434 nt of DNA from Escherichia coli (lineage in GTDB: Bacteria > Pseudomonadota > Gammaproteobacteria > Enterobacterales > Enterobacteriaceae). This document shows, in pieces, positions 1-434 of this stretch. The translations under genes and the position numbers were made by a program. Each line of letters opens with the position of its first letter. Position 1 is the first letter of the stretch. The stretch lies in NCBI RefSeq assembly GCF_003334355.1, contig NZ_QOWP01000107.1, one strand, 5' to 3'. A model generated the notes under the pieces. That model saw only the letters and a list, made by a program, of their open reading frames with translations, had not been told where the DNA came from and did no database searches.

Positions 1-41
1 TCAAAAACATCGCATTTAACTATATTGTGAGGCTTGCATAA
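1..41 (+). CDS. 3' end of an upstream gene (partial, 5' end outside window), probably the side tail fibre gene that normally precedes tfa; codons begin at nt 3 and translate ...[12 protein letters not shown]
   Basis: Seen in sequence: the frame beginning at nt 3 is the only + frame open from the window start to the tfa start (the other two + frames stop at 17-19 TAA and 28-30 TGA). It ends at TAA 39-41, sharing one base with ATG 41-43. Established knowledge: tail fibre genes in lambdoid, Mu and P2-like phages sit directly upstream of their assembly chaperone, often with overlapping stop and start. Only 13 codons are visible, so the product identity is inferred. Confidence 0.45.
27..32 (+). 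promoter_or_regulatory. Shine-Dalgarno / ribosome-binding site for the tfa-like CDS (GTGAGG, core GAGG at 29-32)
   Basis: Seen in sequence: the purine-rich GAGG motif ends 8 nt before ATG 41, a typical spacing for enterobacterial translation initiation. It lies inside the last codons of the upstream ORF, consistent with translational coupling. Confidence 0.5.
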
Positions 42-434
42 TGGCATTCAGAATGAGTGAACAACCACGGACCATAAAAATTTATAATCTGCTGGCCGGA
101 ACTAATGAATTTATTGGTGAAGGTGACGCATATATTCCGCCTCATACAGGTCTGCCAGCAAACAGTACCGATATTGCACCGCCAGATATTCCGGCAGGCT
201 TCGTGGCTGTTTTCAACAGTGATGAGGCATCGTGGCATCTCGTTGAAGATCATCGGGGAAAAACCGTCTATGACGTGGCTTCCGGCGACGCGTTATTTAT
301 TTCTGAACTCGGTCCGTTACCGGAAAATGTTACCTGGTTATCGCCGGGAGGGGAATATCAGAAGTGGAACGGCACAGCCTGGGTGAAGGATACGGAAGCA
401 GAAAAACTGTTCCGGATCCGGGAGGCGGAAGAAA
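41..434 (+). CDS. tfa: Phage tail fibre assembly protein (Tfa family chaperone), N-terminal 131 codons; 3' end runs past the window edge
   Basis: Seen in sequence: ATG at 41 is followed by 131 sense codons with no stop up to the window end (last full codon 431-433), with an SD upstream and enterobacterial-style codon usage. Established knowledge: the translation matches, from memory, the N-terminus of E. coli prophage tail fibre assembly proteins (TfaE/TfaR/TfaQ-like), which share their conserved part with lambda Tfa, Mu U and P2 G. These paralogs are nearly identical, so I cannot say which one this is; the symbol is generic. No search was run. Confidence 0.9.

Follow-up and report, generated by a model that had tools for sequence, protein, structure and literature searches.

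The question raised by this locus is whether a stop codon and a start codon that share a single base tie the synthesis of a tail-fibre chaperone to that of its fibre, or whether the overlap is simply the way in which two phage genes have been packed together. The window, by which we mean the whole stretch of 434 nucleotides of Escherichia coli DNA analysed here, carries the end of the fibre gene and the first part of the chaperone gene. The original prediction, made from the letters alone, was that the arrangement is typical of translational coupling and that it supports the first of two in-frame ATG codons as the true start of the chaperone gene.

By sequence comparison, the window belongs to a Rac-type lambdoid prophage of E. 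coli and covers its stfR/tfaR junction. Loci that are 100% identical to it are present in many E. coli chromosomes, with the gene order gpJ, lom, stfR, tfaR, pinR at the Rac position adjoining ompN and nifJ, and a related copy is found in 4442 of 5426 complete genomes. The Rac prophage of K-12 MG1655 matches the window at 97.7% identity with unchanged geometry, the end of stfR (b1372) and the start of tfaR (b1373) both falling on nucleotide 1432411. Phage lambda (21933-22366) matches at 98.2% identity; here nucleotide 21973 is common to two genes, as the last base of orf-314 (the 3′ portion of stf) and the first of orf-194 (tfa). The one-base overlap between stf and tfa is long known and is already contained in the lambda and K-12 reference annotations. 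The two genes and the elements of their junction lie in the window as follows.

1 to 41, plus strand: 3′ end of stfR (lambda stf/orf-314), with sense codons at 3-38 and the stop TAA at 39-41, according to the translation, the intact locus L003 and K-12 b1372.
29 to 32, plus strand: Shine-Dalgarno (SD) core GAGG for tfa, 8 nt before ATG41 and inside the fibre-gene codons GTG AGG (Val-Arg).
39 to 43, plus strand: TAATG overlap, the fibre stop at 39-41 and the tfa start at 41-43 having nucleotide 41 in common (spacing of -1 nt).
41 to 434, plus strand: first 131 codons of tfaR (191 amino acids in full), taking in the fibre-binding domain at the N-terminus and the beginning of the conserved C-terminal one.

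The short piece of reading frame upstream of the overlap had been expected to belong to a long tail-fibre gene, and its extension in the 5′ direction from nucleotide 3 bears this out. In intact copies the frame is open for 1132 codons (L003, 2643-6041, annotated stfR), and a domain search of the C-terminal 400 residues of the 1132-aa product detects Collar, gp37_C and His-rich Phage_fiber repeats; in degraded prophages a 183-nt remnant of stf is located upstream of a 100% identical window (L005). In translation, the frame from nucleotide 41 runs through to position 434 without a stop, and its identification as tfa is upheld by matches of TfaR to PF02413 (Caudo_TAP; residues 72-191, i-E 1.9e-42) and to phrog_105 (residues 1-191, E 1.5e-98), and by a match of the C-terminal 65 amino acids to Mu U in PDB 5YVQ (5YVQ_B, E 3.1e-8). 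An NCBIfam search with both the fibre and the chaperone protein returned zero matches. Six of the seven coding differences between the window and lambda are synonymous in the tfa frame. Two other open reading frames, one of 77 amino acids on the minus strand (20-253) and one of 93 amino acids in the +1 frame of the plus strand (105-386), were treated as chance frames within the tfa coding sequence, and a promoter-like match on the minus strand (47-19) is at shuffle level only.

Two side observations concern the chaperone gene itself. The Rfam family RF02111 ('IS009') matches the plus strand of L003 at 6384-6582 (220.9 bits, E 1.2e-55), which corresponds to position 384-434 of the window and onward; all of the match falls in the part of tfaR that encodes the conserved C-terminal half, and this family of sRNA candidates may in truth consist of tfa coding sequence or of tfa pseudogenes. 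Codon 83 encodes Asp in the window and Asn in the Rac prophage of K-12 MG1655, and both the D83N change and the deletion of tfaR are reported to raise the mutation frequency in W3110 (PMC12549603, 2025), which is an unexpected phenotype for the chaperone gene of a cryptic prophage.

At the junction the letters of the window read ...ATT GTG AGG CTT GCA TAA TGG CAT TCA GAA TGA..., and the stop and the start share one nucleotide exactly as had been proposed (T39 A40 A41 and A41 T42 G43). The claim that the SD is buried in the upstream coding sequence holds as well. Its GAGG forms a duplex of -5.6 kcal/mol with the 3′ end of 16S rRNA, and a lambda imm21 record (OM418625) annotates the same bases as a ribosome binding site. 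TAATG is observed twice in the window where 1.13 occurrences are expected, and as many are reached by 63 of 200 shuffles, so that the motif alone is not beyond chance and is notable only because it joins two long real genes. Similarly, SD-like sites of -5 kcal/mol or better form seven clusters within 434 nt, which makes the presence of an SD by itself weak evidence.

A second in-frame ATG follows the overlap closely.

53 to 55, plus strand: in-frame ATG (Met5), an internal methionine without an SD at usable spacing.

Comparison of the two candidates gives good support to ATG41, and not ATG53, as the start of tfa, which agrees with the preference expressed beforehand. The best SD pairing available to ATG53 is -2.0 kcal/mol, and it comes from the same GAGG, at least 15 nt away. 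In MHG7, 813R1 and mEp213, where the N-termini of the chaperones are unrelated, Met5 is absent and the overlapped ATG is kept. In homologs down to 43% identity the pattern M-x-F-x-M-S is retained, Met1, Phe3 and Met5 all being conserved while residue 2 is A, T, S, V or D. Phe3 is invariant with synonymous variation between TTC and TTT, and codons 2-4 therefore behave as coding sequence.

Initiation at ATG53 might be imagined either as the sole start or as one of two that give two isoforms, in the style of lambda S107/S105, which is the type of a dual-start gene. Conservation of Met5 together with Ser6 down to 43% identity (STYP1, SEN1, ESSI2, PD328) would be compatible with this, and a ribosome that has terminated could in principle shift 12 nt further to ATG53. 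However, no homolog has an SD within usable distance of ATG53, codons 2-4 behave as coding sequence, the junction homologs that lack Met5 begin at the overlapped ATG, and the equivalent of ATG41 is used in all annotations examined. A dual start implies two codons that each recruit ribosomes; with no SD at ATG53, and with homologs that do without Met5, this is not what is found here, and initiation at ATG53 is very improbable.

ATG41 is also favoured by a locus in which the chaperone gene has acquired another partner. In L013 (IMGVR_UViG_2660237951_000013, 2940-3010) a near-identical Tfa (MDFRMSEQ...) stands behind an unrelated fibre C-terminus, which ends in ...HTHTFNKQYSVSDIK (...SVSDIK) and is followed by an 8-nt gap before tfa. 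The recombination joint is located exactly at the tfa start codon, and an independent and stronger SD, GAGGTGA, is placed for the codon equivalent to ATG41 (TAGAGGTGAAC-ATG). As judged from these features, L013 is a natural recombinant fibre/chaperone locus. Exchange is visible among E. coli copies too: some match the window only from nucleotide 107 or over 134-404, and these mosaic breakpoints suggest that the fibre end and the first ~30 codons of tfa have been swapped as a block in some lineages.

With ATG41 as the start, coupling could be brought about in two ways, either by the unfolding of RNA or by reinitiation. In the first, a hairpin would hide the SD and AUG of tfa until a ribosome arriving at the end of stf opens it, and the minimum-free-energy fold does pair UGAGGCU (28-34) with 43-50. 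In that fold AUG41 is mostly in the loop, with G43 paired, and shuffled sequence folds as well as the junction does (z = 0.03 and 0.29). Furthermore, the pairing of 28-34 with 43-50 is absent from a consensus of six homologs (-3.26 kcal/mol, 0 compensatory pairs), and no significant local structure is detected at the junctions of the overlapping homologs (local z -0.96 to +1.0). A masking hairpin over the ribosome binding site of tfa was rejected as neither significant nor conserved, which leaves coupling by unfolding barely credible.

Coupling by reinitiation needs no masking structure (PMC6728339; review PMC12548453), and several features of coupled pairs are present: the genes are co-directional, they overlap at a spacing of -1 nt, and the SD is embedded in the fibre gene. 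Between the genes, neither a sigma-70-like promoter nor a terminator was detected on the plus strand, where promoter-like counts are at shuffle level, and an internal plus-strand promoter for tfa was dismissed; stfR-tfaR has been treated as an operon (PMC12549603). According to two reports (PMC6728339; PMC10666635), gene spacings of -4 and -1 nt occur most often in E. coli, and overlaps are enriched among the subunits of heteromeric complexes. In PMC10666635, efficient reinitiation is counted as allowed at spacings of -8 to +6 nt, and coupling collapses by ~20 nt. When overlapping E. coli pairs were tested directly, four of five were coupled, and removal of the SD reduced reinitiation in four of five (PMC6728339). 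The coupled pairs of Huber et al. resemble stfR/tfaR in being co-directional, in their stop/start overlap, in the SD placed in the upstream gene and in products that form heteromeric complexes (PMC6728339; PMC10666635), although the pairs of 2019 had 4-nt overlaps and not the 1 nt of stfR/tfaR (PMC6728339). The literature searched, with the lambda profiling paper and J Bacteriol papers of 1987 and 1992 lying outside the search, contained nothing specific on ribosome profiling, start mapping or coupling of stf/tfa.

By analogy with these pairs, we consider it probable (at roughly 0.65) that measurable translational coupling from stf to tfa exists; it would probably be partial. A ribosome terminating at the UAA would be held in place by the contact between SD and anti-SD and would reinitiate at AUG41, so that some of the Tfa synthesis would be proportional to Stf synthesis. 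Such proportionality would suit a chaperone whose binding to the fibre tip has a fixed stoichiometry and which remains attached to the fibre, as in Ur-lambda and Mu. In relatives of TfaR, folding or trimerisation of the fibre needs TFA; the complexes of TFA with the fibre tip are stoichiometric (3:3 in Pam3), and the virions of Ur-lambda and Mu still carry their TFA (PMC9608196). As the SD and AUG are not masked by structure, fresh 30S subunits probably also initiate independently, and with independent initiation added the coupling would be partial and not obligatory. Lambda PaPa carries a frameshift in stf that ends orf-401 at 20855, which amounts to a natural premature stop more than 1.1 kb upstream of tfa.

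The alternative that deserves most attention is that the overlap is inherited compact packing, with tfa initiating de novo at an accessible SD and translation of Stf having no meaningful effect. The lack of masking structure and the ordinary strength of the SD would both be expected in that case. Overlaps are routine in lambda, where 15 of 60 same-strand neighbour pairs overlap by 4 nt and two by 1 nt (M/L and orf-314/orf-194), 17 of 60 in all and whatever their function, so compaction alone could explain the arrangement. The bioBF pair, overlapping yet uncoupled, is the one exception among the tests of Huber et al. (PMC6728339), and it illustrates the independent initiation that an accessible SD permits. 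Against this stands the majority of tested overlapping pairs, which are coupled with masking structure not required.

A scan of viral contigs gave only relatives of at least 95% identity, which are too close for a test of conservation, and divergent homologs were reached via tblastn of annotated phages. Of 86 close loci, 85 keep the junction, as do eight further divergent lineages, seven with the 1-nt overlap and one, HK106, with a 4-nt overlap. Seventeen fibre/chaperone junctions were examined for spacing, and in all 17 the chaperone gene is located directly 3′ of the fibre gene, co-directional as in stfR and tfaR.

Spacing of -4 nt: HK106 (shifted to ATGA).
Spacing of -1 nt: Rac, lambda, STYP1, SEN1, ESSI2, PD328, MHG7, 813R1 and mEp213.
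Spacing of +2 nt: Mu S/U and Mu S′/U′.
Spacing of +3 nt: P2 H/G.
Spacing of +5 nt: Ralstonia phage Dina.
Spacing of +7 nt: Pseudomonas DVM-2008.
Spacing of +8 nt: L013.
Spacing of +27 nt: T4 g37/g38, the sole junction outside -4 to +8 nt.

These spacings bear on the packing explanation from both directions. Homologous pairs separated by gaps of 2-27 nt (L013, P2, Mu, Ralstonia, Pseudomonas, T4) indicate that the overlap is not obligatory, as expected if it is mere compaction. On the other side, 16 of 17 junctions lie at -4 to +8 nt, which is near the range of -8 to +6 nt and well below the ~20 nt given in PMC10666635. An SD is kept as GAGG, GAGA, AAGG or GAGGTGA (-2.7 to -7.1 kcal/mol) across 11 overlapping or near-identical junctions, and no SD is detectable at the junction of Ralstonia phage Dina. 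Initiation that depends on the SD only is hard to reconcile with MHG7 and 813R1, where the SD is a weak GAGA (-2.7 kcal/mol) and the exact 1-nt overlap is kept. On balance, compact packing without meaningful coupling is possible, though rather unlikely.

The alignment of the divergent lineages places the junction within a short block that is conserved as a whole.

6 to 43, plus strand: conserved junction box of about 38 nt, comprising the fibre C-terminal strand ...N(I/V)AFNYIVR(L/A)A, the SD and the stop/start overlap.

In alignment A1, where the box occupies columns ~351-393, no other block is conserved throughout the 10 lineages; its flanks are unalignable on both sides in MHG7, 813R1, mEp213 and HK106, and conservation of the box itself as DNA extends over P2-like, P1-like, lambdoid and Nonagvirus phages. 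Inside the box nearly every codon shows a synonymous or conservative change. The two final codons of the fibre gene differ between lineages (LA, AA, AK, AS), while the distance from SD to ATG and the overlap are fixed, with the exception of HK106. A rare-codon argument for the SD, that Arg is always encoded by AGR in the box, was set aside as weak: AGR accounts for 14 of the 47 Arg codons of stfR, and the lineages share ancestry. Since the box is shared by descent, with approximately one origin for the 10 lineages, and is constrained by the protein, the persistence of the overlap is modest evidence of selection on the overlap itself. It might be speculated that the box has a triple duty, as fibre C-terminal strand, as ribosome binding and reinitiation site for the chaperone, and as homology anchor for the exchange of chaperone genes; we regard this as unlikely. 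If it were true, selection for reinitiation, and not for the protein alone, would help to hold the box in place across P2-like, P1-like and lambdoid phages.

The stfR/tfaR junction can also be viewed beside the known fibre/chaperone systems. The closest is stf/tfa of lambda, which has the same TAATG overlap, the same SD and the order J-lom-stf-tfa, its junction being identical to that of the window except for one synonymous difference at nucleotide 11. The lambda Tfa has 194 amino acids whereas TfaR has 191, and ea47 lies downstream in lambda whereas pinR lies downstream in the Rac-type allele. Lambda has just one further 1-nt stop/start overlap, that of M and L, which also joins tail assembly genes, although the proteins are unrelated. 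P2 H/G and Mu S/U and S′/U′ have the same gene order, tight apposition and a chaperone of the same family (the C-terminal domain is homologous), but the genes are separated by gaps of 3 nt in P2 and 2 nt in Mu, and the fibre C-termini differ. T4 gp38 is distantly homologous to TfaR, detectably so at 29% identity over residues 11-188, and its gene directly follows the distal fibre gene 37. Here a 27-nt spacer (L097, 2477-2506) includes a very stable GGGGCUUCGGCCCC hairpin between GGAG and the AUG of gene 38 (z = -3.1), and the features of this spacer characterise T4 gene 38 as a gene that has a structured ribosome binding site of its own in place of an overlap.

The fibre/chaperone pair of Mu is, unlike stfR/tfaR, located in an invertible segment. 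At the Rac-type locus pinR, of the invertase family, lies 97 nt downstream of tfaR on the opposite strand (L003, 6714-7304), and an invertible cassette of the Mu G, P1 C or e14 P type was considered as the context and rejected. An adjacent invertase is present, but the search for inverted crossover repeats flanking stfR/tfaR detected only weak inverted repeats of 16-21 nt, and no second inverted set of fibre tip and chaperone is annotated at the stfR/tfaR loci. pinR has the look of an orphan invertase whose invertible cassette has been lost.

The arrangement at stfR/tfaR is ordinary and compatible with the routine overlaps of lambda. The analysis confirms the annotation of tfaR from ATG41 and an arrangement that permits reinitiation, and beyond annotation this matters little. 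There is some practical use for the engineering of lambda-type side tail fibres and their chaperones with regard to host range: when fibre tips are swapped, keeping the native TAATG junction with its embedded SD is probably a safe way to preserve the expression of the chaperone.
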